A stretch of 64,000 nt of DNA from an uncultured Gammaproteobacteria bacterium (GCA_964540635.1 CAZINP010000004.1:55306-119305), one strand, 5' to 3'; positions 1,723 to 64,000 are shown, counted from the stretch's first letter. Notes: generated from the letters alone by a model not told the origin. A program made the numbers and translations.

Positions 1723-1929
1723 TACGCAGTCATTTGCGCCTGACCGGTAAAGCAAAAAACTTAGCCGGTTTTTATTTTTTTATCCTTTGACAAAATAGGA
1801 ATATTTTGTTAAGGTTTTTTTGGATTTTTTGATCTTTAACTTTTGCTTTTCTTCCGGGGATTGTCCGGTTTTTTCTGTTTTTACTCAACGTCAAAGCCAA
1901 CGTGTCTTTGGCAACGAAAGGAACAAAAG

Positions 1930-39214: not shown

Positions 39215-39639
39215 CGATTGCAGCCGAAGTTTAATAGAATGTGTGGTCCAAAGCCGATAATTTTTCCCAGACAAAAGTTGCCGGCCTTGAATATCCCGTT
39301 TTTTGGTGGTTTGGGATTGTATAGACACAAAGCCGCCCCCTGATAAAGTGGATTAACGCTCCCACCTTTAATTTTTACGGCTCGAACTTCGTAAAGGCTG
39401 GCACATGTGCCATTAAGCGAACCGCAAACCGGACAAGTGCTTAGGCAGGTTCCCGGCGGCGGGTCTCCCGGATCAAGAGTGCATTTAATCGGCATGCTCA
39501 TAATTCTTAACCCCGTATCGGTGCCGGAAACAGCCTTGGCCGATATTGCCCAGGCTGCTAATAAAGCTACGACAAAAAGCGCTAAAATCGCAATAACGAT
39601 ATTAACTTTCTTTTTTAAAATTAAATCGGGAAAAATCAT
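39211..39639 (-). CDS. Membrane-anchored Cys-rich secreted hypothetical protein
   Basis: An N-terminal TM/signal anchor is followed by 12 Cys in 100 aa. Confidence 0.4.
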   Translation of the reverse strand: MIFPDLILKKKVNIVIAILALFVVALLAAWAISAKAVSGTDTGLRIMSMPIKCTLDPGDPPPGTCLSTCPVCGSLNGTCASLYEVRAVKIKGGSVNPLYQGAALCLYNPKPPKNGIFKAGNFCLGKIIGFGPHILLNFGCNR

Positions 39640-40625: not shown

Positions 40626-41459
40626 ATGGCTTTTGAAGGAAGAAAAAAAGATAATCGCACCATTTTAGAGGATATATATCATGAGGATATATCTGCCAAA
40701 TCGGCAAAAATCCAAATTAAGGAATATTTCAGTGATCCAAATAGAATTGAAAAATTGCTTTCGGCAAGTATTTTGTTTGTCGGCCTAGTTGCGTTGCTTC
40801 TAGGTCTTTTTCAGATAAAAAATAACATTTCGCCGGTAAAAAGGATTGCTCAAAAAACCAATGTCAATCAGGTTGATAACGAAGACTTGCTCGGTCTGAA
40901 GCAAAAAGATACGGATCAAGACGGGTTATCCGATTATGATGAGCTTAAAGTTTATAAAACCAGCCCCTATATTGCCGATACTGACTCCGATGGTTTTGAC
41001 GATAAAATTGAAATCGTTCAGGGGACTGATCCGGTTTGTCCGGAGGGTCAAAATTGTTTTGCCAACTGGACGGAAAATCCGCTAACCAACCCCAATGATC
41101 AGTCAAGTCAGGATCAGGCGCAAAATTTATCAGCGGATCAATTACGAGAAATGTTAATTCAGGCCGGCATGAGCGAGGAACAGTTGAGTCTTTTAAGTGA
41201 TGAAGAAATAGTGAATGCGTACCAACAAATTGCCGGCCAGCAAAGCACGCAAACAATTTCTGGTTCAAACGATTCTGGTCAATCAGCTTCGCTGACCCTG
41301 CCTTTACAGGAATTAAAAAATTTAACTCCAAATGAAATTAGGGAATTATTGGCCGAGAATACCGATATTACCGCCGAAACCCTTGCCAGTATTTCTGATG
41401 AAGAATTAATGAATTTAGTTAATGAAACCTTAGCTAACTATAAAGTCAATGGAAACTGA
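40626..41459 (+). CDS. Membrane-anchored protein with thrombospondin type-3-like calcium-binding repeats
   Basis: One TM helix is present. DTDQDGLSDYDE and DTDSDGFDD are DxDxDGxxDxxD repeats. It overlaps the start of the giant gene by 11 nt. Confidence 0.5.
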   Translation: MAFEGRKKDNRTILEDIYHEDISAKSAKIQIKEYFSDPNRIEKLLSASILFVGLVALLLGLFQIKNNISPVKRIAQKTNVNQVDNEDLLGLKQKDTDQDGLSDYDELKVYKTSPYIADTDSDGFDDKIEIVQGTDPVCPEGQNCFANWTENPLTNPNDQSSQDQAQNLSADQLREMLIQAGMSEEQLSLLSDEEIVNAYQQIAGQQSTQTISGSNDSGQSASLTLPLQELKNLTPNEIRELLAENTDITAETLASISDEELMNLVNETLANYKVNGN

Positions 41460-50400: not shown

Positions 50401-51729
50401 AATTTTTACGGCTTAAGCAGTGATGATCCGGGCGCATTTTCGATTGTTTGGAATTTAATTTTTGGTAATCTTTTTAGTTCAATATTTGCCTTAGGCGAAG
50501 ATCCATCTTCTGATAGTATTGCTGATATAATTCAAGATGCAGTTGATTCTGGGGGATCAAATGAGTATTTATTAGAGGGACAGGGCGCTCTTGGGTCACT
50601 TGGTGCTGTTGGTTTAGTTTTAGGTAATCAGCTGGAAGCTTTTACTGGGAATTATTGTTCCCTGACGGATTTCCGTTGTCAGTCAGGAACAAATGATGGG
50701 TCGCGCTGTTGTTTCTTCTCTTCTTGTCAGGCAAAACAAAATGTCACTTATCGCTGCTTAGCCGGCCCGAATAAGGGCATGATCTGCGATCCGGATGAGG
50801 ATAACTGTGGTACTAGCGCCGACTGCAAAATTAGAACTGCAAACGAATCATATTTGCCAATTAACGATAATCAGCCCGGTGTTTTGCAGGCGGCTTTGCC
50901 ATGGAATCCACCAACAGGACTATGTACCAATAACAGCAGGCCGGAATTTGTTTGCAAATCAGGGCTTAATCGTAATAATTCATGCTTGTCCAACAATGAT
51001 TGTCCGAGCTTTGTTGGTGTTTGCATTAAGAATGCCCAAAAGGTTATGGTTTGCCGCGATAAGAATGGCGATGAAAGACCTTCAAGCGACTGTAATACTG
51101 AAGATGACAAAAATAAAGAATGCAGAACTGACGACGCGTCTTGTGTTCTTAAATCAGACATGACTACATTGGCGTCTTCGTTGTCGGGAATGGATTATTG
51201 CGCGGTAGCCCCGGCCGTTACATCCGTTAAGGTTAATAATGCCGCTAATGCCGAATTATCTTTGTATGGTGGTGACACGGCATCTCTTACCTTTACGGTT
51301 AAGATTAATCCTCAGCAGTTGCCTTTGACCAGCTATACCATTGACTGGGGTGATGCCAAGAAGACTTCACTTTCCGGTCAGTCTCTTTTAAGCCGTGAAA
51401 ATTCCACAAAACCGTTTTCAGCCAGCCATACCTATTCTTACTGGGAATTAAGGGCACTTGACTCAAAGAGCAGCGACGGAACTAATAGCGATGTGAAATG
51501 TCGCACCCGAGACGCTCAAGGCAAATGCTGCCACGCAAACGAAGATTTCTGCCGTGTTTTGCCCAGGGTTCAAATAATTGATAATTGGAACTGGTGCAAC
51601 AACGGTAACGGCCAAAGCGGTTATTATGGTTCAGACTGTGCGGCTGAAGCCCAAGATAACAAAACCAATCCGGCCGCGGCCGCTAATGCTTGGATGCCTT
51701 ACGCCAAGGAACTGCGCATATATCCTTAA
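41449..51729 (+). CDS. Giant (3426 aa) Cys-rich secreted/surface protein with repeated CBM4/9-like jelly-roll modules and a C-terminal membrane anchor
   Basis: A single uninterrupted ORF with an N-terminal signal/TM. Five modules begin with N(P/A)SFE...GW (aa ~790, ~990, ~1560, ~1975, ~2300). There are >150 Cys. A hydrophobic segment lies at aa ~2920-2960. A PKD-like YTIDWGD motif sits near the C-terminus. Confidence 0.75.
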   Translation: METENKNQIDKMEFGFYKKSITTTVLISMVFSVVMPALLFPLDPVLADNKMSPLPATQPGSAAAGAVPQPKLNSETINEANRAESVKVYDSSLISKVRETNTITSSFKKGVEVIADTFNTRDWSWESLKDAVYVASKEALNYLLNTFAYDVATWLASGDKGQQPMFFTDGWGPYLTNVLDEAGGVFLESLGQDWGNFNLCNPTVFNLKVSIGLGIAEMDKPKKPSCTITQMVNNWDKMISDGRILDNIDLMFDSKNNDFGITLDILGRHAEYKTQAALNATKDREEGQGAKSVSGKIADKIFTPAFLVRDEAQLMLAKGTVADEQVNYGDIFMNAVSNFINTLAGKLLDRIFKEGLAALSGSNSSNKDSDNSDLFDALRTGEEIGRNLYNLLTNQDDELYTGQTGTTLFAGKQASQERYSGLLRAGVKETGPYDVLTKFVVCQDPKNPGVDECVIDQKFRSAISKKITLRQAISEGLINGDAPFGYKAATIKEGIPYRTIVILRAHRIVPIGWELAARVANEFVPQETWTLNKLIENYNVLGSPFKGLVDPNWVLEVPLHYCKAQGYGAKILSDKIVAGTDANNDGDYDDASDLAPGRTVSREQYCADFQTCIQKSSDGGCLYYGYCTEEKPIWDLDGKECKSQFNTCLTFQKAGDKVVSYLENTLNYNNCSKENAGCQWYCNEFNTINNIWSCTAESEKVLKTCSQTSRDGQGVVGCITNASCEMNTGDTVCNDLVSGIKMVISQPCSNTTKWWNAATNKCTVSASCTIPKGGVYCQVGGCENLENLLPNPSFETASTTYDVPSPALGWYADTNYFKKVGSALDYIYRGKSSLRFYNAGTLVSENAISGNVLLKTGSYTLSGYIFNNLNVGEIKIAAINAAGSEIKSIALSTEGKQTWYQASFDFSVTADTQVRVKINVTDPNGNQVSGSAWFDNFRISQSCITNPITLTMVGDVEKSESKINFDRDVKTCPSDAAGCTEFISLQPNGSVNLVRNASFEDWLDGTPLPKGWRYGEHWSDSNNEISRYTPGVLGSNALLIKNGSDNHYRDFSTDPIVGMKPNTSYRVSFYVKTDDSVPGQNWYAEIISDNNPDYYCAQKTSQNCASVACDAGDTCISDWTPIDVGGRQKFTLTNNWRRIVFDVITTRSLGYDFKLSFDNALDENSTIIIDGVQIEEVDTRNPIASEFRNYGTSNLFNIKKAPDNLSCRGYTKTRPSPYVLPGVGYEQCVGDTLVWRKFCDGGENAGQPCGGTADCPGAECRPDSCSSVNPNECCHEIDAPICSNYSMLCQEDEVGCQLFTPVGQSGAGTKLSAVAQLTDYCPAECVGYEAFYQSATFLERQQTLEYFIPKTAKSCPASAVGCDEFTNLDEVAKGGEGKEYYQYLRLCQKPTEPAANCTSFYAWQGSDEAGYQLKSYLLKADTNNTPARAITDLSLLPDAWCSDKTLDATGLPECCNGPEDIITNPFCKELIGADSQISYRIYLNTISCSNDCHPYRKTVYGGSTADNQTNCTQTSGNWDSNLNACIYQAIPNEGLKCSSANAGCREYRGNTAGNVYIALSDTFETGTTVNWSNGVISSEALSVGGHSIRSYSNNLETIINDLGSVCNKDSATYDSQSNRCTTTTGDCSVAIGQRYCGVIGSSLTAGKMYIIGFWAKTSSDIRNLDLKLKTAGISDNTLGSVSINNDWAYYLIGPVTYDQTKDINLSSRLNFSSDGDFYLDNLIVKEVNNFVYAIKGSWNTPASCDTNPFLAEPIFAPQFMLGCKQYLDSDNLYHNLKSFSNLCREEAVGCQAMIDTYNSTSPFEVKAPFEDKLSTVTVPEDKLTYIVNRADVRCNAQYQGCQAFGVPTISYDSLSKPVVTGYSQAYLINDPDAYNSILCARGENGCDEYQSANGYSYFKDPGTQTCEWKLIPNKNKYGWFRTDMSSDTPNCPMVNPPVGQAHPDGSKGFVGLCPADQNTCTLFIDPISDISKNQIFNSDFYADVDNDKTPDGWIKSGSTVYQKVSLSHDTLYTFSVEVADKTSVGGLSVVLTNCLGLRSFDNSMVISGSTAQIPMDYIVGDTREINNLNNNRAYSARIYSPADMTCRLEISGLDGTNPKSDLNSKLSKVAFRETGQYYTLANTVDTLTCNGVVNPNNGCVLFNDRSYVNYHLGENDISYLSFDADASGVDDRGQPINNGLAVSNLGRMPGDSNSVLKVIPDRTCATWLACTGSVSETDEKNADKKYCTDLGLCDQADENGNCTNFVVTKEGNDRQTYFDRELIKNYSGFAQSGLAFESVAASLPGNFLPAEMQQVGGIAFSPSTNFETITAGDFRPYGWNLDCPQTTNPPVKNFLKTEWKREYAQVITNPVSAQQEGLSSAAPEGTAFVKLTGPYVISSEKIDVNGNTKYTVSAYINTEKLITGQARIVIEEYDLSSSVPIKTIGLSGPQLEQLRLDSSQKWTFKIAEFITETGASSIKIKLMNFNEKSDRFRNPCTNTEGRIHEILGSSYFDDIKVKPSLEVSRDSNGSIFVPPTCRVYPESDSLSCDYYSDKGYHFRGWLGYCLEPDPANSAQCLMWWPVELIQGGFISEEPSVAQRPLYYCLGAKESHYRYRQCVFEDGEMCASLKRPSSDKSARTRNIEWTVPGSWRVQSWQVEGLSVASSISDCGASDQCGINFGLFKLIKNPTIPNSYFGSGISADLVYDSDGLLEKIKFEIVGPNCLCADMDVVLQVVSSWCQYVAQTITPYGQNKAWWERVSNNSGQLFAVPGVGYTNLFDYPPFGALVPPYPVDNPAVWDLRSSGDTYFAPLRVEEPQTGNFADPYQARAGLPYACSQLSAAFGDTSCTLPTLNRATSSSIVYNKDVAQAQDSLKRIFAKSYETYQFQGDGVCKTSSDQVGGKECACPESTCGLEANVTFNTCKNTGAVCEVGQFACMDISDIGQTLIMFIVESGYTSGPNIVAMIVGAVVQVVLEFLTACSPKPCDSTCDAGEGQCIPLPQYLTNFYGLSSDDPGAFSIVWNLIFGNLFSSIFALGEDPSSDSIADIIQDAVDSGGSNEYLLEGQGALGSLGAVGLVLGNQLEAFTGNYCSLTDFRCQSGTNDGSRCCFFSSCQAKQNVTYRCLAGPNKGMICDPDEDNCGTSADCKIRTANESYLPINDNQPGVLQAALPWNPPTGLCTNNSRPEFVCKSGLNRNNSCLSNNDCPSFVGVCIKNAQKVMVCRDKNGDERPSSDCNTEDDKNKECRTDDASCVLKSDMTTLASSLSGMDYCAVAPAVTSVKVNNAANAELSLYGGDTASLTFTVKINPQQLPLTSYTIDWGDAKKTSLSGQSLLSRENSTKPFSASHTYSYWELRALDSKSSDGTNSDVKCRTRDAQGKCCHANEDFCRVLPRVQIIDNWNWCNNGNGQSGYYGSDCAAEAQDNKTNPAAAANAWMPYAKELRIYP

Positions 51730-51735
51730 TAAAAT

Positions 51736-54700
51736 ATGAAAAATATTTTAAGAAAAATCAAAAGAAATAATTGGCACAAAAAGTTTTTCATTTTTTGCTT
51801 GCTTTTAGGTATTAGTTTGATTTTTGTTAATTCTGCTTTTGCCCAAGCCGGAGCAGCAGCCGGAGCCGCAGCAGCGGCTGTTAATACCCCGGAAGACACG
51901 GAGCCGGGCGTAATTGCCAATTTTGTTTATCAATTTTTTGTCGGAGTTTTTGCCGGGATAATCCGTTTTGAGGGCTGGATTCTGGTGATTTTAACCAGAA
52001 TTTTTATTGGAATTGCAAAATATAACGGCTTTGTCAATTCACCGGCCGTGGTTACTGGCTGGACTCTGGTCAGAGATGTGGCCAACATGTTTTTTATATT
52101 GGTAATGTTGGCTATTGCCTTAGGTACGATTTTGCATATTGAATCTTACAACTTCAAACGGCTTTTACCTAAAGTTTTGATCATGGCTGTTTTAGTTAAT
52201 TTTAGCCGTACAATTTGTGGTCTAGCCATTGATTTTGCCCAGGTGATAATGATGACTTTTGCTGTTGGTTTTGCCAGTATCGTCGGGGCGGGTGATTTAA
52301 TGGCGACCTTACACATTACTGAAATGCTTAATGCTTCAGCTCATCTTGATAAAGATTATAGCATTGACTGGAGTGGTGCTTTTGTTACCGGTTTATTGGC
52401 AGTTATTCTTTTATTGGTGGCGGTGATTACAGTTTTGGTTATGGTAGTTGTGATCACTATGCGTATGATAATGCTTTGGTTGTTGGTAGTACTATCACCT
52501 CTACCATTTGTTTTAACCGCTTTTCCGGCCGGTCAAAAATATGCTCAGCAATGGACGCAAGAGTTTTTTAAATATGTCATTGTCGGTCCGGTTTTGGCTT
52601 TCTTTTTATGGCTTTCCCTGGCGGTTTCTTCTACCGGTAAATTGGATGGTATGATTAATGACAATACCGTGACATCGGAATTGAGCAATGAAAATCTTCA
52701 GAGAGGTGAAAATTTTACTGAATACACTAGTCAACAAAGGAATACGGCGGTTTTTACCGCCATTGGTAATCCTGATAATTTTTTGGCTTTTTTGATAGGT
52801 ATTGGTATGCTGCTTGGCGGTTTGATGATTACCCAGCAGCTGGGTGTGGCCGGCGGGGCGTTTGCCGGACAGATGTCTAATGCTATCAGGCAAAAAGGTT
52901 TATCTGCAATTTTAGCGCCGGCTAAATTGGGCAAATGGGGAGCGGGTCAGGCTTGGGCCGGAACCAAGATTGCCGCCAAATCTCCTTTTCAATATATTGG
53001 CCGTAGGGTTAATGAAGGAATCTCTGAAGGCAGGATTAGCGCTCTTTGGAATCCGGCGGCAATGGTTAGGGGTTGGCAAGCCAGAAGAAAAGAATTATAT
53101 GAGGGTTCAGAACAAGCAGCAACGGCCGGTGCCCAAGAATGGATTGAAAAGAAATTTACCGGAACCTCAATGCCAAGAAGATCAATGTTGGCTCACTCGG
53201 AAGAGTCTAAGTTTGCCAAGGAATTTAGCTTTATGAATAAGAATGAAATGGCTAAAACGGCAATTGATTTACTGGAAGCGCCTGATACGGCTGAAGTCAG
53301 ATCAAAACGTCGCGCTTTAATTCGGGCGGCCGGGGAGCAGGGTTATATTGATGATATTATGGGTACTAAAGAAATGATTGATCATGTTAAGAAATCTTTT
53401 AATGATGCTTATAATGGCACTGGTCAATTTGCAGGCGATAGCGACGAGGTCAAAGAGGCCCGCAGAAAATATTTTGATGAATCTGATATTAAGAATAGAG
53501 TGGATAATGGCGAATGGCACGGTTTTGATCAGGTTCATATGTTTTTGGAGAGTTTTGTTGGACGTGATCGTAATGGAAAATCAAATGAGGATGGGCTAAA
53601 CACGATTGATTCTCTGGAAGAAATCGGTATGCGTATTGGTCACGCCGAATACGCCGGCCATGCCAGTTACGATGCTAAAAAGGGTACAATGGTTATGACG
53701 ACTCTGCAAAAAGGCGACTTTAATGCCCATCAAAAAGCCGAAACTGAGTTTAACAAATTAAAAGGCCGCAATCGTATTCCAACTGCGCCCCATGCTTTGT
53801 TTAATTTTAACAGCGACAAAAAAGGCAATTTTTTTGCTTCGCTTGATCGATATTCTCTATCGAATATGATCATGGCTTTTAAGGGTCAGGGTAAGAATAT
53901 TGCCGAACACGGCCAAAACCGCAACTTGAACGTCTTATTTGGCGGTGAAATGTCCGGCATGATATGGTCAAAAGATAAAAGTGGCAAGGTTGAAACTCGT
54001 GAAGTTAAAGATGCCAACGGTAAAAAAGTCGGTGAAACAAAAGTTGTCGATCTGACCAGATTAAGCGGCGAGGCTTTAAAAAAACAATTGGAAACCATGG
54101 CCGCCTTTATGTCAATTGCCGATAAAGACGGCGTTTCGGCTGCTTGGAAAAAAGTGGGTGGTGACGGAGAAACCGCTCATTTTAAGATTAAAGGGGAAAA
54201 TGGCGAGGATGAATATATTGATCACAAGACTTTAATGGACAGGTATCCGATTAATGAGACGCTGAGTCAACTCGGTAGTACTGAAGAAGAGGTGGCTCAA
54301 TCAGTTGATCAATCAGCTGGCGCCGGTTCAAATGTTCCAAACGAAGATGAAGACGAAGTTTGGGATAATTTACCAGATGAAGAAAAGAACAGTAGATTTG
54401 TAAATGCTATGCAAGAAATGAATGATGAGAGAAGGGCTCAAGGTGCAGCGCCGGTTGCTGATCGAGATGAAGTGATAAAATATGCTAAAGAAAAAGCCTA
54501 TAAAGAAACTATTTTGAGAGAAACGGCTGATAGCGCCCAGAATCCAGAAGATTTTGCGAATTTGGGCAATTCAATATCTCAAGCCCTAAGAGACGGCTTG
54601 GACTCTCAAGGTATTATTAATGCTGTCAACGGCTTGGAGCGTATTTTAAACAACCTTAATTCTCAAATCAACGGCCTTTCCGAGGGCAGGACCAAAAATT

Positions 54701-54891
54701 CGGCTGAAAGTGATTTTGATAAACTTTCTAGGTCTTTTGGAAATTTCCGTTCAGCGGCTGAAGTTGGCAATCAGAATCAGGTTGATACACTGCTTAGAGC
54801 CATAAATAAATCGGTTAAAGACTTGGCCTTCAAAGTAAAACAAGAAGAGGGTGGCAATCAAGCTCAAGATAATAGGCCGGATAATACCTAA
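51736..54891 (+). CDS. VirB6/TrbL-like polytopic membrane protein with a ~700-aa hydrophilic C-terminal extension
   Basis: A signal peptide is followed by 6-8 TM helices in the first ~300 aa and then a long charged tail. It is coupled 7 nt after the giant gene. The VirB6 assignment rests on topology and context. Confidence 0.5.
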   Translation: MKNILRKIKRNNWHKKFFIFCLLLGISLIFVNSAFAQAGAAAGAAAAAVNTPEDTEPGVIANFVYQFFVGVFAGIIRFEGWILVILTRIFIGIAKYNGFVNSPAVVTGWTLVRDVANMFFILVMLAIALGTILHIESYNFKRLLPKVLIMAVLVNFSRTICGLAIDFAQVIMMTFAVGFASIVGAGDLMATLHITEMLNASAHLDKDYSIDWSGAFVTGLLAVILLLVAVITVLVMVVVITMRMIMLWLLVVLSPLPFVLTAFPAGQKYAQQWTQEFFKYVIVGPVLAFFLWLSLAVSSTGKLDGMINDNTVTSELSNENLQRGENFTEYTSQQRNTAVFTAIGNPDNFLAFLIGIGMLLGGLMITQQLGVAGGAFAGQMSNAIRQKGLSAILAPAKLGKWGAGQAWAGTKIAAKSPFQYIGRRVNEGISEGRISALWNPAAMVRGWQARRKELYEGSEQAATAGAQEWIEKKFTGTSMPRRSMLAHSEESKFAKEFSFMNKNEMAKTAIDLLEAPDTAEVRSKRRALIRAAGEQGYIDDIMGTKEMIDHVKKSFNDAYNGTGQFAGDSDEVKEARRKYFDESDIKNRVDNGEWHGFDQVHMFLESFVGRDRNGKSNEDGLNTIDSLEEIGMRIGHAEYAGHASYDAKKGTMVMTTLQKGDFNAHQKAETEFNKLKGRNRIPTAPHALFNFNSDKKGNFFASLDRYSLSNMIMAFKGQGKNIAEHGQNRNLNVLFGGEMSGMIWSKDKSGKVETREVKDANGKKVGETKVVDLTRLSGEALKKQLETMAAFMSIADKDGVSAAWKKVGGDGETAHFKIKGENGEDEYIDHKTLMDRYPINETLSQLGSTEEEVAQSVDQSAGAGSNVPNEDEDEVWDNLPDEEKNSRFVNAMQEMNDERRAQGAAPVADRDEVIKYAKEKAYKETILRETADSAQNPEDFANLGNSISQALRDGLDSQGIINAVNGLERILNNLNSQINGLSEGRTKNSAESDFDKLSRSFGNFRSAAEVGNQNQVDTLLRAINKSVKDLAFKVKQEEGGNQAQDNRPDNT

Positions 54892-54902
54892 AAAAATATA
54901 AA

Positions 54903-56144
54903 ATGATTGATCAGCGTTTAGAAAAAATAAAAACATATTCAGCCGAAGCCCTCTTTGATGAAACAGTATATGAAATGGTTAGCGGTTTTGTCGATGATTT
55001 GATTTCTAATATGCAAATTGGGGAGGCAAAAGAGCTATTTTTCTTTTTGACTAATCTTTTGGCTAAGGTTCCAATATCGTTGGAAACCGCCAATTGGCGT
55101 AAAAAGTATGAATCAGTTATTTCAAAAATAAGATGGATTGCTTTTCCGTTTATATCAGATCAGGATGTTGAAAAGCTTTTTAGTAACCAATTAATTGAAG
55201 CGATTAAGAATGAGTACGATATTCAAAATAAGATCTATGGATATTTTAGAATCAGTCTTGGTGATGAAGTTGCGATCTCGTCCAAAAGAAGACTGATCTT
55301 GAGTTCCTTAAAGAATAATAATGAAGATATCGGTAAAAAAGAGATAGTTATACCCGGGATTGATGCTAAATTTCCGTCTCAAATTAAAAACTGGATAAGG
55401 GATTTTGAGCAGTCAAGCTCAAGGGAAAAAAGGATAAAGAGAATTGCAATTTTGGAATATTTGAATTTGAGCAATAATTTAAAAGGACTATCGGTTTCGG
55501 ATAGAGATATATTGCGTCAAATTTTGGAAATATATGAAGATTTAAGATTTGTTTTTATCGATCGTGAAAACGTTGAGGCCGTACATATCTTACCCGAATT
55601 TTTACGCGATACTAACGGCGATATCCGAAATAATAATAAAGAAGAAATTGAATTGAATCAAAATATTATTCTTGCCGCCTATCAGGGAGATATGAAACAA
55701 CAAAAAGCGATTGAGGCTCAGCAACAAAAGTTGAAAAGTTCGGTTGGAACAGACCCGAGTCGTTTACAAGCTGAATTTTATAAATCGGTCCAAAATCAAG
55801 ATTTAAATGGAACGGTCGCGGCCATAAAACTACTCGCCCTCAATAATCAACTTTTGGATTTTATAAAAAATGATCAAAAATTAAATAAATTTTTAACCGC
55901 CACTTGGCTTAAGCTTTACGGTCAGGCTGTGGCCGATGAATTTGCCAAAAATCCAATCCAGCCCAAGTTTGTCAGATTGTTTTTGAAGTATGTGCTATTT
56001 GAACGTTTGAAAATGAGCGAATCAGATGCGGGTCGAATCGCTTTGCAAATCGGCAATATTTTGGTTTCACAGGGTAAATTAGAGTATAATCGAATGGCAT
56101 ATTTTGATGTAGCTGGCAGGCAATTCAAGTGGTTTGAAGATTAG
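54903..56144 (+). CDS. Hypothetical cytoplasmic protein (413 aa), last gene of the operon
   Basis: Only the ORF and its tight coupling support it. No recognisable motifs. Confidence 0.4.
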   Translation: MIDQRLEKIKTYSAEALFDETVYEMVSGFVDDLISNMQIGEAKELFFFLTNLLAKVPISLETANWRKKYESVISKIRWIAFPFISDQDVEKLFSNQLIEAIKNEYDIQNKIYGYFRISLGDEVAISSKRRLILSSLKNNNEDIGKKEIVIPGIDAKFPSQIKNWIRDFEQSSSREKRIKRIAILEYLNLSNNLKGLSVSDRDILRQILEIYEDLRFVFIDRENVEAVHILPEFLRDTNGDIRNNNKEEIELNQNIILAAYQGDMKQQKAIEAQQQKLKSSVGTDPSRLQAEFYKSVQNQDLNGTVAAIKLLALNNQLLDFIKNDQKLNKFLTATWLKLYGQAVADEFAKNPIQPKFVRLFLKYVLFERLKMSESDAGRIALQIGNILVSQGKLEYNRMAYFDVAGRQFKWFED

Positions 56145-56213
56145 GGGATATTTCAAAATATGGTAGTTTGATGTATTCAACATAGCGCGAATAATTATTT
56201 AATAATTTCGCAT

Positions 56214-56642
56214 ATGTTGAAAGCGCCAAATCTCAAATTACAAGTTACAAACAAATTAAAAATACCAAGCACCGTAAATGATAATTCAAAATATTATGAT
56301 TTGGAGTTAAGAACCTTGGAATTTGGAAAGAGAATTATTAGAATGAGCCGGGCATTATCTGTCAATCCTGTTAATCGAGTATTGATAAATCAAATTGTTC
56401 GTTCCGGGACTTCTATCGGCGCAAATTATCGTGAGGCAAACGAGACTGAAACCAAAAAAGATTTTCTATTCAGGTTGAGAATAGCAAGGAAAGAAGCGAA
56501 AGAAACAATTTATTGGTTGAATTTGATTATTGAGGCAAATGTTGGCTTGGAGTTAAGAATCAAGCCATTGGTTGTTGAAGGTCAAGAGTTATTAAGAATA
56601 TTGGCTGCAATTATTGAAAAGTCAAAGCATAAAAAAGTTTGA
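56214..56642 (+). CDS. Four-helix-bundle protein (23S rRNA intervening-sequence protein family)
   Basis: SGTSIGANYREANE...FLFRLRIARKEAKETIYWLNL matches the family signature. The gene is flanked by inverted AAATCTCAAAT repeats. Confidence 0.6.
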   Translation: MLKAPNLKLQVTNKLKIPSTVNDNSKYYDLELRTLEFGKRIIRMSRALSVNPVNRVLINQIVRSGTSIGANYREANETETKKDFLFRLRIARKEAKETIYWLNLIIEANVGLELRIKPLVVEGQELLRILAAIIEKSKHKKV

Positions 56643-56807
56643 GTTTGGAATTTTTAGCTTGTTGCTTGTTTGGAAATTGAGATTTGAGATTTAAAATTTT
56701 GTATAAAAATCTATTAATTATTAATAATAAAGATTATTTACCTGCTTTATTTGGGGAAACAGGCTAAGCGCCGCTATTGGGGAAGACGGCTAAGAAAGGA
56801 TAAAAAC

Positions 56808-57983
56808 ATGATTGGTAAAAAACAAAAAACTTACATTTTTACTTCGGAATCTGTTACCGAAGGTCATCCGGATAAGATCTGTGATCAAATTTCGGACGGA
56901 ATCTTAGATGCGGCTTTGGCCGACGATCCAAATTCCAGAGTCGCCATTGAAACATTGGTTACGACCGGTTTGGTCGTCGTGGCCGGTGAAATGACAACCT
57001 CAACCTATATTGACGTGCCAAAAGTTGTCAGGGGAATTATTAAAGATATCGGTTATACCGACCCAAGCATTGGTTTTGATTGGGAGAATTGTGCCGTTGT
57101 TACCTCAATTGATGCGCAAAGTCAAGATATTTCTCAGGGTGTTAGCGAAGGAGAAGGAATGTTTAAGGAACAAGGCGCGGGAGATCAGGGGATGATGTTT
57201 GGGTATGCCACCAAAGAAACGCCGGAATTTATGCCCTTGCCGATTGTTTTGGCCCATAAGCTAACTCAAAAATTAGCAGAAGTCAGAAAATCCGGACAAC
57301 TTTTGTGGTTGCGCCCGGACGGTAAAGCTCAGGTGAGCATTGAATACCAAGACGGTAAACCTAAGCGAATAGATTCGGTTGTTCTTTCCACTCAGCATAC
57401 TGAAGATGTTGAGCACGATACGATTGAAAAAGAAATTAAAGAGAAGGTGATTAATCCGGTTTGTGCCGAATGGCTTGATGAAAAAACCAAATATTACATT
57501 AATCCAACCGGAAGATTTGTTATTGGTGGGCCTCATGGCGACACCGGTGTTACCGGTCGTAAAATTATTGTTGACACCTATGGCGGACACGGTTCGCATG
57601 GCGGCGGCGCTTTCTCGGGCAAAGATCCGTCAAAAGTTGATCGTTCTGCCGCTTATATGGCAAGATACATCGCTAAAAATATTGTAGCCGCGGGTTTGGC
57701 CGATTCTTGTGAAGTTCAAATTGCCTATGCGATTGGCGTAGCTGAACCGATTTCACTTTTAGTTAATACGGACAATACAGCAGCAGTTTCTGAGGAGAAA
57801 ATCGCCGAAGCGGTAAGAAAAGTTTTTCCTCTGAAACCGGCTGAATTAATTGAGCATTTAAAATTACGCCGACCGATATTCAGAAAAACAACTTGCTATG
57901 GTCATTTTGGCCGAACCGACCAAGATTTCACTTGGGAAATGGTTGATAAGGTTGAGGCCTTAAAAAAAGAGCTCGGAGTTTAG
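56808..57983 (+). CDS. metK: S-adenosylmethionine synthetase
   Basis: Motifs [20 protein letters not shown] and GGGAFSGKD are present. The start is trimmed to the ATG at 56808, which has an AAGGA RBS. Confidence 0.9.
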
Positions 57984-58013
57984 TCAAAGTTTAATGGCTT
58001 TGGGAGGAAAAAT

Positions 58014-59327
58014 ATGGTAAATAATTCTCAACCCAGCGACGATTTTTTTAGTTTGCTGGAAAAAGAACAAAAGGAGAATAACCCGACCAGTCTTGATGAA
58101 ATTATATTTAGAGATCAAGCGGGGAAAATGAAGGTCTTAAAGGACGGTCAGGTTTTTGATTATGTTCAAAAAGAACTTCCTAAACCATTAACCGAGAAAA
58201 AAGTTAAGGATATTGTCGAGCCACCGGCAAGCAAGCCATTGGAAATTATTGAAAATGATCAGGAGTATAAGAAAAAAATTTTTTCTGAAATCAAGCCAAA
58301 GTCTTTGCCGGAAATAAAATTGTCAGAGAATAAAAAGGCAGAAGAAAAGATAAGCCGTGCGCCGCTTGAGGTTAATCGGTTAATTAAACCAAGTCTGCCG
58401 CAGATGCCGCCTAGACCCAAAAGACAGATAATTTTAAGTCCGGCTCATTCCGTGGCTGATTTTACCGAAGCCGCCCAAGAAATTATCAAGAAGGTAAATT
58501 TGTCGCTTTCTGACACCGATTTAAACAAGCGATTGCTTAATGTTATTATTTCCAATCTAAAGAACATACGTGATCGAATAGAAACAAAAGAAATGCTATT
58601 GTCTTCACCGCTTGAAGGAGGGGTTGGCTTGACTCAGGATGTTGTTGATAAAATTATTGATTTGAGCGAAGAAAAAAGAGCTTCATTTTCACAAATTAAG
58701 CCCAGGGGATCTGACGTTCCCGTTTCTCTGCAGGCGGAGGTGGAAATGATGCTTGAAAAACCAACGGAAACAAAACAAGTACCGGAGAAAAAAGTTTTAA
58801 GTTTGCCGCAAGAAAAACCAAAACCGCCAGAGCCGAAATTGGCAATGCCCGCCATTGTTTCTGTTTTGCCAAAAAACGATGAGAAAAAACCGACCATCAA
58901 GGAAAAAATTGTTTTGCCCGTTATAGAAAAAAAACAGGCGATTACTCCGGTTGTTTCCGAAAAGCAGGCCGTAAAGACTGAACCGATTAAATTTAAGCCA
59001 AAGCTTTTAGATCCGGTGGAAGAAATAAGGACAATGACCATTAAGGATTTTAGGCTTTTAGACCCCGATCCGGTCAAGGCGGCTGATAAAATTATGAAAA
59101 AGATTGAATTGCTCGAGGAAGAATCAATTGTTCAGAAAGTAAATGGCATTAAGGCTTGGAAGGAAAGTGAGCCATATAAATTATATTTAAAAATTGGTTT
59201 GCAGGCCATGGAAGAAAAATGTTTGATGTCTGAAATTATAGCCAAGTATCAAGCTGCTAATCAAGAGACTTTAAGCGAAGCTGAACTTGAGGCGATTATG
59301 GAGTTAAGTCAAAAAATTAGATATTAG
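58014..59327 (+). CDS. Hypothetical Lys/Pro/Glu-rich protein (437 aa)
   Basis: ORF only, with low-complexity composition. Confidence 0.35.
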   Translation: MVNNSQPSDDFFSLLEKEQKENNPTSLDEIIFRDQAGKMKVLKDGQVFDYVQKELPKPLTEKKVKDIVEPPASKPLEIIENDQEYKKKIFSEIKPKSLPEIKLSENKKAEEKISRAPLEVNRLIKPSLPQMPPRPKRQIILSPAHSVADFTEAAQEIIKKVNLSLSDTDLNKRLLNVIISNLKNIRDRIETKEMLLSSPLEGGVGLTQDVVDKIIDLSEEKRASFSQIKPRGSDVPVSLQAEVEMMLEKPTETKQVPEKKVLSLPQEKPKPPEPKLAMPAIVSVLPKNDEKKPTIKEKIVLPVIEKKQAITPVVSEKQAVKTEPIKFKPKLLDPVEEIRTMTIKDFRLLDPDPVKAADKIMKKIELLEEESIVQKVNGIKAWKESEPYKLYLKIGLQAMEEKCLMSEIIAKYQAANQETLSEAELEAIMELSQKIRY

Positions 59328-59361
59328 TAAAAATAACCTTTTTGTGTTATAATTATTTAAG

Positions 59362-59820
59362 ATGCAGCAATTTGTCGTGCCACAATTTATCGACGTTGAG
59401 GATAAGGTTTTAGGTCCGATTACCGTGCGTCAATTTATCATTATTTTGGTTGGCGGCGGTCTTATTTTTGTCGCCTATAAGTTAGCAGATCTTACTTTAT
59501 TCATTTTGGAAGCGGTGATTATTGCTTTTGCAACATTTATTATCGCCTTTGTTAAGATAAACGGCCGGCCAATTCATTATTTTTTCCTAAATGTCTTGCA
59601 GACTTTAATGAGAGACCGGCTCCGCGTTTGGCTTAAAGTTTATTCTCGTCAAGAAATAAAAGAAGCGGAAAATGCACCGGCACCAAAATTACCAATGGAA
59701 ATACTGACCAGAAATAAAGTTCGCGCCTCGCGTTTGGCGGAAATGGCTTTAATTGTTGATACGGGTGGAATTTATGAGGGCGAGAAAGAACCGCCGGAAA
59801 GTAAAAACGAATTAGTATGA
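59362..59820 (+). CDS. VirB3-like small two-TM protein
   Basis: 152 aa with two adjacent hydrophobic helices. It sits immediately upstream of, and overlaps, the VirB4 N-terminal ORF. Confidence 0.45.
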   Translation: MQQFVVPQFIDVEDKVLGPITVRQFIIILVGGGLIFVAYKLADLTLFILEAVIIAFATFIIAFVKINGRPIHYFFLNVLQTLMRDRLRVWLKVYSRQEIKEAENAPAPKLPMEILTRNKVRASRLAEMALIVDTGGIYEGEKEPPESKNELV

Positions 59821-60497
59821 GATCAAAAAAATTAGCAACCGGAAAAATTAACACCTCAACCCAAAAGTATCTGGATATTGCCGAAATCAGAGATGATGTG
59901 GTGATTATGAAAGACGGAACAATGCGTGCCGTGATTTTGGTTTCCAGTATAAATTTTTCTTTAAAATCAGAAGATGAACAGAACGCGATAATCTCGGCTT
60001 ATGTCAGTTTTTTAAATTTTTTGGAATTTCCTCTGCAAATTGTCATCCAGTCAAGACGGCTTGATATTGACAGCTACATTGATCGTTTAAAAAAAATTGA
60101 AAAAGAGCAAACAAATGAATTATTGCGTTTACAGATAGTTGAATATACCAATTACATTAAAGAGCTGGTTGAGATTGGAGATATTATGACTAAAAGATTT
60201 TACGTCGTTGTGCCTTATAACCCCTTATCAGACAAGCAGAAATCTTGGAATCAAAGATTTTTGGGCTTATTCACCGCGGCGGCTGAAGTTAAATTAAGCC
60301 AAGAAAATTTCATTAAAAGGCGACACTCTCTTTTTCAGAGGGTTGAGCACACCCTATCAAGTTTAGCCAGCATGGGGGTTAAATGCGCAGTTTTGGATAC
60401 GCCAAGCTTAATTGAATTGTATTATAATACTTATAACTTGGATGTTTATAGTAAGCAGAAGATTACGGATTTAAATAAGATTCGCGTTGATCAATAA
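59817..60497 (+). CDS. virB4: VirB4-family conjugative ATPase, N-terminal domain (separate ORF)
   Basis: YLDIAEIRDDVVIMKDGTMRAVILVSSINFSLKSEDEQ matches the VirB4/TraC N-terminal region. It ends with a TAA that overlaps the next ORF. Confidence 0.6.
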   Translation: MRSKKLATGKINTSTQKYLDIAEIRDDVVIMKDGTMRAVILVSSINFSLKSEDEQNAIISAYVSFLNFLEFPLQIVIQSRRLDIDSYIDRLKKIEKEQTNELLRLQIVEYTNYIKELVEIGDIMTKRFYVVVPYNPLSDKQKSWNQRFLGLFTAAAEVKLSQENFIKRRHSLFQRVEHTLSSLASMGVKCAVLDTPSLIELYYNTYNLDVYSKQKITDLNKIRVDQ

Positions 60498-62391
60498 TTA
60501 TATGGCGATAAAACCAATTGAAATATTAAGAGAGGAAGAAGCCGAAAAGATTGGTCCGAAAGTGACTTTAACGCCCGAGCAAAAAAGGGCGGCTGATTTA
60601 GCCGAGGTTCAGGCGCAAAAAGAAGTAATTGAAAAGTATAACGATTATTTGCAGGGCGTAATCTCCATAAAAGATTTAGTCGCGCCGGCGGCTATGGAGG
60701 TAACGCCAACTTTCATAAAATTAGGCGATAAATTTGTCAGAACAATTTTTGTTATTACCTATCCTCGTTATATTGCAGTTGGTTGGTTTTCGCCAATCAT
60801 TAATTTGTCGGCCACAATTGATATTGCCATGTTTTTTTATCCGGTTAAATCAGATATTATTTTGAAACAATTGCGCAATAAAGTCGGCGCCCTGGAAGCT
60901 CAAATAATTTCTGACAGAGAAAAGGGCGCACCGCGCGACCCGATTCGTGAAACCGCTTTGCGTGATATTGAAAAATTGCGCGATGATTTAACTCAGGGGA
61001 TTGAACATTTTTTCCAATTTGGTTTATATGTGACTTTTTATGCCGACAGCAAAGAACAGCTTGAGAACATGACCAATGATATTGAATCGCTTTTTGGTTC
61101 TCGTTTGGTTTTTACAAAGAAAGTTTTATACCAAGCCGAACAAGGGTTCAATTCAACTTTGCCAATCGGAAACGACGAATTGATGGTTGGGTTTAATATG
61201 AATTCTTCGCCGATTGCTTCATCATTTCCTTTTATGTCTTCTGAATTGACTTCCGATGAAGGGATTTTGTATGGTATAAATCGTCACAATAACAGTTTAA
61301 TTTTATTTGATCGCTTTTCTTTGCAGAATGCCAATACGGTGGTTTTTGCCACATCCGGGGCGGGTAAGAGCTATACCATAAAGCTGGAAGTTTTGCGCAC
61401 AATGATGTTTGGGACCGATGTTATTGTCATTGATCCGGAAAGGGAATACAAGCATTTATGCGATGCGGTCGGCGGAACATATATTAATATTTCTTTAAGT
61501 TCTGATGCCAAGATTAACCCGTTTGATTTGCCGCGCGCGGTTGGTGATCAGAGGCCGGATGATATTATCCGCGGTGCTGTTATTACTCTAAAAGGTTTAG
61601 TCAGATTAATGCTTGGGCAATTAACTCACCAGGAAGATTCAATTGTTGACAGGGCGTTATTGGAAACTTATGCCAAGAAGGATATTACCGCTGATGCTGA
61701 TTTATCAAAAATTGAACCGCCTATAATGCAAGATTTTCAAGATATTCTTGAAGGCATGGAAGGAGCTTCAGATTTAGCCTTGCGTTTAAGAAAGTTTACT
61801 CAAGGTACGTTTGCCGGGTTATTTAATAATCCGACCAATGTGGATATGAAAAATCAGCTCGTTGTTTTTTCGGTCAGAGATTTGGAAGACGAATTGAGAC
61901 CAATGGCAATTTATACTATTGTCAATTATATTTGGAATGTTGTCAGATCAGAACTTAAAAAACGTATTTTGATTATTGATGAAGCTTGGTGGTTAATGCA
62001 AAATGAAGATTCGGCGAAGTTCATATATGCTTTGGTCAAGCGTTGTCGCAAATATTATTTGGGTGTGACCAATATTACTCAAGATGTAAACGATTTTTTA
62101 CTTTCGCCTTATGGCCAAGCAATTGTAAACAATTCGGCTCTTCAACTTTTAATGCGCCAGTCTCCGGCTTCAGTGGAAAATATTCAGCGAACTTTTATGC
62201 TAACAGAAGGGGAGAAGTATTTGCTCTTGGAATGCGGCGTTGGTGAAGGCATATTTTTTGCCGGCGACAAACATGCGGCCATTAAGGTTGTTGCTTCGTA
62301 TGCTGAAGATCAATTGATTACATCTGATCCCAGGCAATTGTTAGAAATTGAAGAAGCAAAAAAGGAATTTGCCAAAAGTCAGAAGCAATAA
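60487..62391 (+). CDS. virB4: VirB4-family conjugative ATPase, ATPase domain (TTG start, or ATG at 60502)
   Basis: Walker A FATSGAGKSYT, DPEREY and Walker B LIIDEAWW are present. It lies in the +1 frame relative to the upstream ORF. Confidence 0.8.
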   Translation: MINNYMAIKPIEILREEEAEKIGPKVTLTPEQKRAADLAEVQAQKEVIEKYNDYLQGVISIKDLVAPAAMEVTPTFIKLGDKFVRTIFVITYPRYIAVGWFSPIINLSATIDIAMFFYPVKSDIILKQLRNKVGALEAQIISDREKGAPRDPIRETALRDIEKLRDDLTQGIEHFFQFGLYVTFYADSKEQLENMTNDIESLFGSRLVFTKKVLYQAEQGFNSTLPIGNDELMVGFNMNSSPIASSFPFMSSELTSDEGILYGINRHNNSLILFDRFSLQNANTVVFATSGAGKSYTIKLEVLRTMMFGTDVIVIDPEREYKHLCDAVGGTYINISLSSDAKINPFDLPRAVGDQRPDDIIRGAVITLKGLVRLMLGQLTHQEDSIVDRALLETYAKKDITADADLSKIEPPIMQDFQDILEGMEGASDLALRLRKFTQGTFAGLFNNPTNVDMKNQLVVFSVRDLEDELRPMAIYTIVNYIWNVVRSELKKRILIIDEAWWLMQNEDSAKFIYALVKRCRKYYLGVTNITQDVNDFLLSPYGQAIVNNSALQLLMRQSPASVENIQRTFMLTEGEKYLLLECGVGEGIFFAGDKHAAIKVVASYAEDQLITSDPRQLLEIEEAKKEFAKSQKQ

Positions 62392-62400
62392 AATTATAAT

Positions 62401-63006
62401 TTGAATAAGTTTATGACTATGACTAAGAGAAAAAAAATTATTATAATTTCCGGATTAGTTGTTTTAGTGTTAATTCTTTTAATTGTTCTGATTTGGTTCT
62501 GGCTTAATCCCAAGGCCATTACCTCTGTTTTTGAACCAAAGCAAGAAACCGGATTGCAAATTCCGGCTAATTTACCAAGTGCTTCATCTGCCTTGCCCGA
62601 TGCGTCAACCAATCCGATAAAAGAACCAAAGACTGAGGCGAGTATCAAGGCGATCGCGGTTACTTTTACCGAGAGATTTGGAAGTTTTTCCAGCCAATCA
62701 AATTATGCCAATTTGGATTCACTCAAAGCCATTTCAAGTAGAAAAATGATTAATTATTTAGAAAGCCTTAAGGTTGCCTCCGGTAACGAAGATTATACCG
62801 GTATCACCACGCAAGCATTGATTACCGAAGTTTTGTCTTTCAGCGATACTACTGGCCGTGCGGAAATAAAGGTTACAACCAAGCGTCAAGAAAGTTCAGG
62901 TTCAACAATTAATCCTCAAGAATATTATCAAGATTTGAATCTCAAGCTTGTTAAAGAAGATGGAAGCTGGAAAGTTGATCAGGCTGATTGGGGCTCAAAG
63001 AAATAA
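62401..63006 (+). CDS. Bitopic membrane protein, VirB8-like candidate
   Basis: An N-terminal TM helix is followed by a ~170-aa extracytoplasmic domain. Position downstream of virB4 supports the call; no sequence motif does. Confidence 0.3.
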   Translation: MNKFMTMTKRKKIIIISGLVVLVLILLIVLIWFWLNPKAITSVFEPKQETGLQIPANLPSASSALPDASTNPIKEPKTEASIKAIAVTFTERFGSFSSQSNYANLDSLKAISSRKMINYLESLKVASGNEDYTGITTQALITEVLSFSDTTGRAEIKVTTKRQESSGSTINPQEYYQDLNLKLVKEDGSWKVDQADWGSKK

Positions 63007-63038
63007 AATAAATATTAAAATCAACATAGCCAAAAGCT

Positions 63039-63689
63039 ATGTTTGATTTAAAAAAATATTTTCTTGATTTCTTATTTCCGATAGAATGCCTTGGTTGCTC
63101 TCAAGCAAATACTTGGCTTTGTCCCTCGTGCATTAAGAATTTGCTGTCTAATAAATTTTCATCTTTTAATATTTTAGTGAAGGGAGTTGATGTTGAGGTC
63201 GCTTATTTGGCAGATTATCAGGATTTATGGGAAAAAATAATTGTTAATTTTAAATATAATTTCATCTCGGAATTGATTGATATAATTGATAGGGCAGTAA
63301 CAGAAATTATCAGGGAAGATGATTTGCATAAATTTTTTCCAAAGGGCTGGGTTTTAGTCCCGGTGCCATTGTCCAAAAAGCGCCAAGCTTGGCGCGGCTT
63401 TAATCAGGCAGAAATTATTGCAAAATTAGTTGCCAAAAGAACCGGCCTGACCGTTGAAAATGATTTGATTTTTAGGCAAAGAAATACCCGCCCTCAAGTG
63501 GGCTTAAGTCGAAAGCAAAGAAGGAAAAATTTAAATGATGCTTTCAGGGTTAAACCAAGGTCTGATATTAAGGGCGTAATTTTAGTTGATGACGTCGTAA
63601 CAACGGGCTCAACTTTACTTGAATGCAGCCAAGCCTTGCAAATTTCCGGGGTAAAAATGGTTAAAGCATTTGTTTTAGCTCGCGGCTGA
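63039..63689 (+). CDS. comFC: ComF-family protein (ComFC, zinc ribbon + phosphoribosyltransferase domain)
   Basis: N-terminal CxxC...CxxC is present. The PRTase motif VILVDDVVTTGSTL is present. Confidence 0.8.
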   Translation: MFDLKKYFLDFLFPIECLGCSQANTWLCPSCIKNLLSNKFSSFNILVKGVDVEVAYLADYQDLWEKIIVNFKYNFISELIDIIDRAVTEIIREDDLHKFFPKGWVLVPVPLSKKRQAWRGFNQAEIIAKLVAKRTGLTVENDLIFRQRNTRPQVGLSRKQRRKNLNDAFRVKPRSDIKGVILVDDVVTTGSTLLECSQALQISGVKMVKAFVLARG

Positions 63690-63744
63690 TATCTTTACAA
63701 AAATAACTCATTATGATATATTATTAAAGCAAAATAAAGCTTTT

Positions 63745-63831
63745 GGAGAGGTGCCGGAGTGGTCGAACGGGACTCACTGCTAACGAGTTATCCCCTAAAA
63801 AGGATCGAGGGTTCGAATCCCTCCCTCTCCG
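63745..63831 (+). tRNA. tRNA-Ser (anticodon GCU)
   Basis: Hand-folded. Acceptor is GGAGAGG/CCTCTCC, anticodon loop CTGCTAA, with a long variable arm, T-arm GAGGGTTCGAATCCCTC and discriminator G. No CCA is encoded. Confidence 0.8.
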
Positions 63832-63845
63832 TATGGAGAAATTTA

Positions 63846-64000
63846 TGGAGGAAAAAAACACAAATCAGCCGGATTACGGCCAAGTCCATTTTTCTTGGAA
63901 GTTTATTGAATTCCCGAATTACGAAAGAACTAGAAGATGGTATACAATTTGGGTAGCAGTAATTGCCTTGATTTTACTTTTTTCTTTGCTGACTGCCAAT
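63846..64000 (+). CDS. Hypothetical membrane protein; the 3' end lies beyond the window
   Basis: RBS GGAGA lies 6 nt before the ATG. A hydrophobic helix begins at the window edge. Confidence 0.35.

Follow-up and report, generated by a model that had tools for sequence, protein, structure and literature searches.

Genes of the locus

The window analysed here is a 64-kb stretch of DNA (CAZINP010000004.1:55306-119305, assembly GCA_964540635.1, uncultured Gammaproteobacteria bacterium). It carries a gene cluster that we read as the core of a chromosomal type IV secretion system (T4SS), in which VirB4 is encoded by two adjacent genes. Coordinates are those of the whole stretch, and open reading frames (ORFs) lie on the + strand unless noted. 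Between 40626 and 63689 every gene is on the + strand and the genes are tightly packed. A check of the sequence located, on this strand and exactly where they had been placed, all five ORFs that a preliminary description of the region had proposed (a VirB3-like ORF, the N-terminal and ATPase domains of VirB4, a VirB8-like candidate and comF). Lengths below are in amino acids (aa), and TM stands for transmembrane.

58014-59327, +: 437-aa protein with no TM segment, directly 5′ of the PrgI gene
59362-59820, +: PrgI family (VirB3-like) protein, 152 aa, two TM segments (PF12666)
59817-60497, +: TrsD-type protein, 226 aa, stand-alone homologue of the N-terminal part of VirB4
60502-62391, +: VirB4 ATPase, 629 aa (NF045971, PF19044, PDB 4ag5)
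62413-63006, +: VirB8-like bitopic protein, 197 aa from ATG, with a TM helix, a disordered linker and an NTF2-like domain
63039-63689, +: ComF family protein, 216 aa, zinc ribbon and phosphoribosyltransferase domain; next gene, tRNA-Ser
63744-63832: tRNA-Ser, 3′ of the ComF gene

Two of the lengths depend on the choice of start: 634 aa (from 60487) or 629 aa (from 60502) for the ATPase, and 201 aa (from 62401) or 197 aa (from 62413) for the VirB8-like protein.

Two ORFs correspond to a single VirB4

The ORF at 59817-60497 had been described as the N-terminal domain of VirB4, and profile searches agree with this. It matches VirB4 models solely in their N-terminal parts (positions 95-235 of 894 in NF045975, E = 1.4e-9; positions 6-105 of 752 and 5-64 of 789 in two further models) and is also matched by the TrsD/TraD model NF041427 (E = 8e-8). 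As the latter match reaches 32 bits against a curated cutoff of 200, we regard the protein as a distant member of the TrsD/TraD family, with which it shares a length of about 200-230 aa, homology to the VirB4 N terminus and a position directly 5′ of the ATPase gene. Precomputed Pfam annotation assigns it to PF26593 (‘TraC-like’); our own Pfam scan, run with a release without PF26593, returned no match even at E = 10.

The ORF that ends at 62391 scored 365.5 bits against NF045971, the model of CD1110-family VirB4 (cutoff 325; positions 172-730 of 752). It contains a Walker A motif (TSGAGKSYT), a Walker B motif (ILIIDEAW) and the TraG P-loop domain (PF19044). Among PDB sequences it matched the VirB4 C-terminal domain 4ag5 with E = 2e-48 and TrwK with E = 2e-11. 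The score above cutoff and the Walker motifs place the protein in the VirB4 family of CD1110 / MPF-FATA type, as had been proposed. Placed on the 894-position VirB4 model, the two ORFs follow one another, TrsD over 95-235 and the ATPase over 275-893, which makes them collinear with a single VirB4. By these alignments, TrsD and the 629-aa ATPase together make up one canonical VirB4. Single-gene VirB4 proteins (R388 TrwK, Agrobacterium VirB4, F TraC) likewise have a Walker-motif ATPase domain, and their N-terminal region is contacted by VirB3; they are, however, single polypeptides of ~790-890 aa, whereas the window encodes 226 + 629 aa. They belong to diderm systems, which have VirB7, VirB9 and VirB10 and in most cases also VirB11 and VirD4; the window locus lacks all five.

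The first ORF ends with a TAA codon at 60495-60497. As previously described, the second frame is open only from 60475 and the junction has no homopolymer, there being no run of three or more bases in 60475-60497. The reported overlap of 11 nucleotides (nt) turned out to be an artefact of a TTG start at 60487; the first ATG lies at 60502, 4 nt past the stop. The gene call in a near-identical public contig begins at the equivalent ATG and gives a 629-aa product, and 60502 is the likely start of the ATPase.

The two-gene arrangement is conserved among related loci

For a comparative analysis we scanned one genome per species with the TrsD profile. This yielded 80 loci, 78 with both genes on the contig, all from metagenome-assembled genomes of Patescibacteria of ABY1 type (Buchanan-, Falkow-, Uhr-, Komeili-, Magasanik-, Kerfeld- and Veblenbacteria). 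Separate TrsD and ATPase ORFs were found in 78 of 78 related species, and TrsD ends at a stop codon. The relative frame of the two ORFs was 0, 1 and 2 in 24, 28 and 27 loci, respectively (79 counted, window included), with a distance from stop to ATG of -8 to 204 nt (median 12). Sizes across the loci were 206-256 aa for TrsD and 610-669 aa for VirB4, and mean aa identity to the window protein across the 80 loci was 59% and 74%, respectively; VirB4 is 67-89% identical among related loci. TrsD homologues numbered 5360; among the best 120, every one measures 193-240 aa and is Patescibacterial, for instance from Candidatus Buchananbacteria. The TrsD profile gave 3277 matches among 1.84 billion cluster representatives, and in 149 of the best 150 TrsD stands alone. 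The lone fusion among these 150 (P0267, 898 aa) has TrsD at 2-223, a linker of ~50 residues and VirB4 at 275-892, collinear with TrsD followed by VirB4; it may be a true secondary fusion or a gene-calling artefact.

The preliminary description had offered either a genuine two-ORF VirB4 or a recent disruption. Only the former finds support, in the 78 of 78 species, the use of all frames and the variable spacers. What the disruption reading has in its favour is that the two frames differ, that the ORFs come together within 23 nt and that their summed length is normal for a VirB4, as if a frameshift or nonsense mutation, or an indel in assembly or sequencing, had recently broken VirB4 and left a pseudogene or an artefact. 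We give this practically no credence, given that the arrangement recurs in the 78 other species in three frames and with spacers of up to 204 nt, that stand-alone TrsD homologues exist in thousands, that TrsD is highly conserved across the 80 loci, and that an independent near-identical contig has the same junction. Frameshift, pseudogene and assembly error are ruled out by the 78-species comparison. Because the frame relation is random while the gene boundary is constant, no frameshift, recoding or sequencing error lies behind the split.

The spacing of just 4 nt between stop and start, together with the one natural fused homologue, might also suggest a programmed +1/-1 frameshift or stop read-through by which a full-length fused VirB4 would be made, either alongside the two proteins or in their place. 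This too is exceedingly improbable, as 60475-60497 holds no slippery or homopolymer sequence, the frame relation is not conserved and the spacers vary and contain stops. With frames that differ and variable spacers that contain stops, a single conserved recoding event is impossible; programmed recoding is ruled out by the unconserved frame and the lack of a slippery site. On comparative grounds, the two-gene VirB4 is an old and conserved arrangement and not a broken gene. For annotation this means that pipelines and readers should not call the junction a frameshift or a pseudogene.

The same split is found in Firmicutes plasmids

The Staphylococcus aureus plasmid NC_013339 (pGO1/pSK41-type) carries, in this order, a CagC-family pilin gene, a 135-aa gene, trsD (227 aa) and a 672-aa DUF87/VirB4 gene, followed by genes for a membrane protein and a CHAP hydrolase and by trsH. 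In hhalign comparisons the Patescibacterial TrsD profile aligned with staphylococcal TrsD over 120 columns (E = 3e-5, probability 72%). Residue 37 of the window's ATPase aligns to residue 9 of TrsE (E = 5e-48), and the split therefore lies at a homologous position. Like the window, the trsC-trsD-trsE segment of pGO1/pSK41 (MPF-FATA subclass) encodes a small membrane protein, TrsD and a VirB4 ATPase, with the same split point, and has a pilin-like gene upstream. Unlike the window locus, the plasmids are mobile (MOB-suite types NC_013339 as conjugative, with a MOBQ relaxase), and the plasmid region shown has no comF, giant protein or extended VirB6-like gene (for the latter two, see below). The two systems share 24% identity in the ATPase and, over 120 columns, ~28% in TrsD.

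Stand-alone TrsD-like genes are present in 75 Firmicutes plasmids; in the single one inspected, a Pontibacillus megaplasmid, the TrsD-like gene is followed by a CD1110-family VirB4 gene. Since the same split occurs in Firmicutes plasmids, the two-gene VirB4 is not a Patescibacterial novelty. It is ancestral within one subclass of monoderm conjugation systems, and the split predates the divergence of the Patescibacteria and Firmicutes systems.

Conserved neighbours of the TrsD and VirB4 genes

The gene set had been called ‘minimal’, which does not hold: the window also contains a VirB6-like gene, a gene for a giant protein, the gene at 58014-59327 and three VirB2-like pilin genes. The VirB6-like and pilin genes had been overlooked, and the 437-aa ORF at 58014-59327 had been left undescribed, yet the range given for the region began at 58014. 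The upstream features are listed here.

28727-29701, +: VirB2-like pilin-domain protein 1, 324 aa (PF18895)
29709-30824, +: VirB2-like pilin-domain protein 2, 371 aa (PF18895, E = 1.8e-7, 31.6 bits, above cutoff)
30856-32013, +: VirB2-like pilin-domain protein 3, 385 aa (PF18895, E = 7.8e-7, 29.5 bits, above cutoff)
41449-51729, +: giant Cys-rich protein, 3426 aa, directly 5′ of the VirB6-like gene
51736-54891, +: extended VirB6/TrbL-like polytopic membrane protein, 1051 aa (PF04610)
54903-56144, +: 413-aa soluble protein, variable, in a hypervariable segment
56214-56642, +: gene of the 23S-rRNA-IVP / four-helix-bundle family (TIGR02436, E = 1e-22)

The consensus order over the 80 loci is giant protein, VirB6-like, 413-aa gene (in some), metK (in some), 437-aa gene, PrgI, TrsD, VirB4, VirB8-like and ComF. 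Synteny was counted in loci with enough flanking sequence. PrgI adjoins TrsD in 71 of 71 loci, with the 437-aa gene 5′ of the PrgI gene in 69 of the 71; the VirB8-like gene is beside VirB4 in 50/54 and ComF within 2.5 kb of VirB4 in at least 37/54, while a VirB6-like gene lies upstream in 33 of 40.

The VirB3-like assignment of 59362-59820 was upheld by profile scoring: the protein matched PrgI (PF12666) with 36.6 bits against a cutoff of 27 and has the two hydrophobic segments of PrgI/VirB3-like proteins. The end of its gene and the TrsD start share 4 nt (ATGA). For the bitopic VirB8-like candidate at 62413-63006 an AlphaFold model was obtained from 30 homologues (predicted local distance difference test score 85), which comprises a TM helix, a disordered linker and an alpha+beta cone. 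The predicted structure best matches solved VirB8 structures, whereas ordinary NTF2 enzymes score at most 11.5. With a TM helix and an NTF2-like domain nearer to VirB8 than to other NTF2 proteins, the modelled protein is assigned to the VirB8 family. The identification of comF (63039-63689) is probably right as well. Its product aligned with TIGR00201 over the full model (positions 1-190 of 190, E = 5e-34), at 117.8 bits and under the curated cutoff of 233.55; PF00156 scored above and DZR_2 below the Pfam cutoff, and the Cys motifs CLGC...CPSC are present.

Alignment of the 437-aa protein showed three conserved blocks, including a C-terminal domain of ~110 aa, with low-complexity linkers between them. 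No relatives of it were found in Pfam, NCBIfam or PDB, and hhalign revealed no similarity to staphylococcal TrsA. From its position we consider it an unnamed, apparently tightly linked component of the T4SS. The 413-aa protein was found in 14 related loci with 20-35% identity and in the near-identical strain with 48%; it has no relatives in Pfam or NCBIfam.

Upstream genes and a variable segment

Within its first 370 residues the VirB6-like protein contains ten hydrophobic segments; it consists of a conserved TM domain (~1-400) and a hypervariable, hydrophilic C-terminal part of 650 aa. Precomputed annotation gives TrbL and TrbL_3 matches that are marked weak. Six nt before its gene ends that of the giant protein, in which the sole domain match is CBM_4_9 and the one hydrophobic segment spans residues 24-42. 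In at least 16 related loci, tblastn matched the giant protein at the syntenic position 5′ of the VirB6-like gene. We take it for a probable surface protein and a candidate adhesin of the system.

The array of pilin genes is situated ~27 kb upstream of the core and is preceded by a DsbA-like gene (27974-28723). The products of the three tandem genes all have a signal peptide and a Cys-rich N-terminal part, and each has a C-terminal domain of its own; two of the three exceed the PF18895 cutoff. Pilin protein 1, with its two-TM pilin core and C-terminal extension, falls just below it (T4SS_pilin, E = 3.6e-5, 24.2 bits, cutoff 26.6). The C-terminal domain of protein 2 gave only a VanY/M15-like hint (E = 0.18), and that of protein 3 a weak glucosaminidase-like one (PF01832, E = 6e-4, below cutoff); both hints are of cell-wall hydrolases.

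The near-identical public contig, which comes from another sample, encodes an identical TrsD protein, and its flanks share 98-99.4% identity with the window. Megablast gave no match in it for window positions 52948-56698 (3.7 kb; corresponding to L082 3593-6882). This segment spans residues 401-1051 of the VirB6-like protein, the 413-aa gene and the four-helix-bundle gene. In the VirB6-like protein, window and contig share 99-100% identity over residues 101-400 but only 15-29% over 401-1051. The comparison suggests that a cassette has been exchanged between strains, with an abrupt edge at about residue 400.

The four-helix-bundle gene lies here between the 413-aa gene and metK and is absent from the near-identical strain. 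Elsewhere it was seen at L008 5914-6276 and L011 3132-3470 and in L017, L056, L069 and L080, and its position varies by species, for example between the PrgI gene and TrsD. It seems to behave as a small mobile or often-inserted gene.

A probable resident secretion system of the Patescibacterial type

Coupling-protein, relaxase and VirB11 families were searched with Pfam in each ORF of the window of at least 100 aa that is not inside or antisense to a larger ORF. No VirD4/type IV coupling protein (T4CP), relaxase or VirB11 family was detected among these ORFs; a conjugative T4SS, with a relaxase and a VirD4 or TcpA coupling protein, is accordingly not found within the 64-kb window. The earlier observation that these genes are missing, and the view that this is not classical conjugation, are in agreement with the scan. 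In the same ORF set the other genes of the window are housekeeping genes. With no relaxase or T4CP in the window, a chromosomal locus and interleaved housekeeping genes, we take the cluster to be a resident machine and not a mobile conjugative element.

A survey by Quinonero-Coronel et al. 2025 (PMC12102498) described TrsD as a remote homologue of the VirB4 N terminus that outnumbers every other T4SS component in Patescibacteria (2272 homologues, 1664 beside virB4), along with PrgI-type VirB3, VirB6, VirB2-like pilin arrays and scarce relaxases. VirB8 homologues were reported there almost exclusively in ABY1, where comF also lies near virB4. The name TrsD is absent from the main text of Guglielmini et al. 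2014 (PMC4027160). The window locus has the marks of the published Patescibacterial T4SS, being chromosomal, with TrsD, PrgI, VirB2-like pilins and comF nearby, and with no relaxase in the window. Like the ABY1 arrangement of PMC12102498, it has TrsD beside virB4, a PrgI-type VirB3, a VirB6-like gene, a VirB8-like gene and pilin arrays, and no essential difference was noted between the two. The two-gene TrsD + VirB4, the PrgI/VirB6/VirB8 set, the missing relaxase and the comF of ABY1 are covered by that survey and by a 2025 review (PMC12857230). Since every element is described in PMC12102498, the system is already known and the locus is a correct re-discovery of it. To this our analysis adds modelling that backs the VirB8-like gene, a linked 437-aa gene, a VirB6 C terminus that is hypervariable at the level of strains, and pilin genes with long C-terminal domains.

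On the gene identities, the two-gene architecture and the synteny observed, we conclude with a probability of about 0.88 that the region is the core of a chromosomal, conjugation-derived (MPF-FATA-like) T4SS typical of Patescibacteria. Its nearest relatives appear, from sequence similarity, to be ABY1-class lineages, e.g., Candidatus Buchananbacteria.

How the subunits touch and what they transport we infer from better-studied systems. The R388 structure shows the VirB4 N-terminal domain wrapped by VirB3 (PMC9259494). By analogy, TrsD would be a detachable N-terminal module, wrapped and tethered to the membrane by the VirB3-like protein, and would dock the ATPase, which may form a hexamer as VirB4 does. 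The hexamer together with the VirB6- and VirB8-like proteins could then build a cytoplasmic-membrane translocon or a pilus-assembly platform. The overlap of the VirB3-like gene with the TrsD start and the homology of TrsD to the VirB4 N terminus point to TrsD as most likely an adaptor close to the membrane that links the PrgI-like anchor to the ATPase. The whole may serve as a resident host-interaction machine for pilus assembly and protein export, possibly also for nucleic-acid traffic. In Saccharibacteria T4SS genes are essential and a role in host interaction has been proposed (PMC10633639, PMC12857230). Essentiality of this widespread machine has been shown only in that group. The variable VirB6 C-terminal cassette, the pilins with enzyme-like C termini and the linked 437-aa protein may give handles on host specificity.

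Several observations weigh against this interpretation. The TrsD profile had no meaningful match among PDB sequences, the VirB6-like protein scores 0.2 bits under the cutoff of PF04610 TrbL (E = 1.1e-5, 25.7 bits, cutoff 25.9), and no VirB1-type hydrolase was firmly identified. Moreover, metK and the four-helix-bundle gene interrupt the cluster, which may therefore not be a single operon; a promoter and terminator scan of 54500-64000 gave counts at the level of shuffled sequence and no information on operon structure. Finally, the proposed substrate and role of TrsD are drawn from analogy with systems outside ABY1.

Homology to Gram-positive conjugation genes and the lack of a relaxase or T4CP in the window would also be expected of a decayed, non-functional integrative conjugative element that has lost its relaxase and coupling protein. 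We judge this very unlikely. Across 80 species the genes keep their order, with metK and other housekeeping genes in between, the core proteins are strongly conserved (see the VirB4 mean identity above), every ORF is intact, no composition anomaly is seen, and homologous genes are essential in Saccharibacteria. The mobile-element reading is ruled out by the interleaved housekeeping genes and the conserved synteny.

The comF link and DNA uptake

The adjacency of comF, from which DNA uptake or transfer had been suggested, is as such confirmed by the counts in related loci. The Helicobacter pylori ComB T4SS with ComFC and the archaeal Ced system for DNA import are machines with a VirB4-type ATPase and no relaxase, and serve as analogues for a reading in which the cluster is a DNA-uptake system that works with ComF and supplies DNA or nucleotides to an organism unable to make them. 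Homology of these systems to the window has been shown only for VirB4, VirB3 and VirB8; here, the machine's genes lie next to a ComF gene. Several features fit: comF closes the cluster, 32 nt past the VirB8-like gene, and its linkage recurs in the loci counted above; no relaxase or coupling protein is found in the window; and the ATPase is weakly matched by the DNA-import model CedB (E = 8e-12, well short of the cutoff). Genes comF, recG and radA also lie near virB4 in ABY1 (PMC12102498).

Set against these are the confinement of the ComF linkage to one class and its absence from at least 17 of 54 loci, the weakness of adjacency as evidence in very compact genomes, and the ORF family scans, which found no further competence gene in the window. 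We know of no demonstration of DNA import for any Patescibacterial T4SS. In Southlakia epibionticum, the only Patescibacterium tested genetically, the T4SS is essential, whereas a comEC deletion is viable and competence proceeds via type IV pili (PMC10633639, PMC12857230); the essential role there is therefore not ComEC-dependent uptake. We regard import as possible but unproven, and on balance improbable. The comF linkage and the cassette-like replacement at 52948-56698 point to a more specific version, in which the ABY1 T4SS, coupled to ComF, would act in relaxase-independent nucleic-acid import, with host or strain specificity set by swappable modules (the hypervariable VirB6 C terminus, the 413-aa gene and the pilins with enzyme-like domains). 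We offer it as a speculation with, if anything, slightly longer odds. Export and pilus assembly by a resident T4SS is the reading that we prefer.

Other features of the window

An Rfam scan of the window returned two tRNAs and nothing else. A 142-aa ORF on the - strand (39211-39639), located between a Sua5/YrdC-like gene and ksgA, has an N-terminal hydrophobic helix and a Cys/Gly/Pro-rich C-terminal part and gave no family match. Near the start of the window, two adjacent genes on the + strand (820-1722 and 1843-3228) encode SAICAR-synthetase domains, the second fused to an AIR carboxylase (PurE-like) domain. This pair of SAICAR-synthetase genes is an unusual purine-pathway arrangement for a reduced genome.

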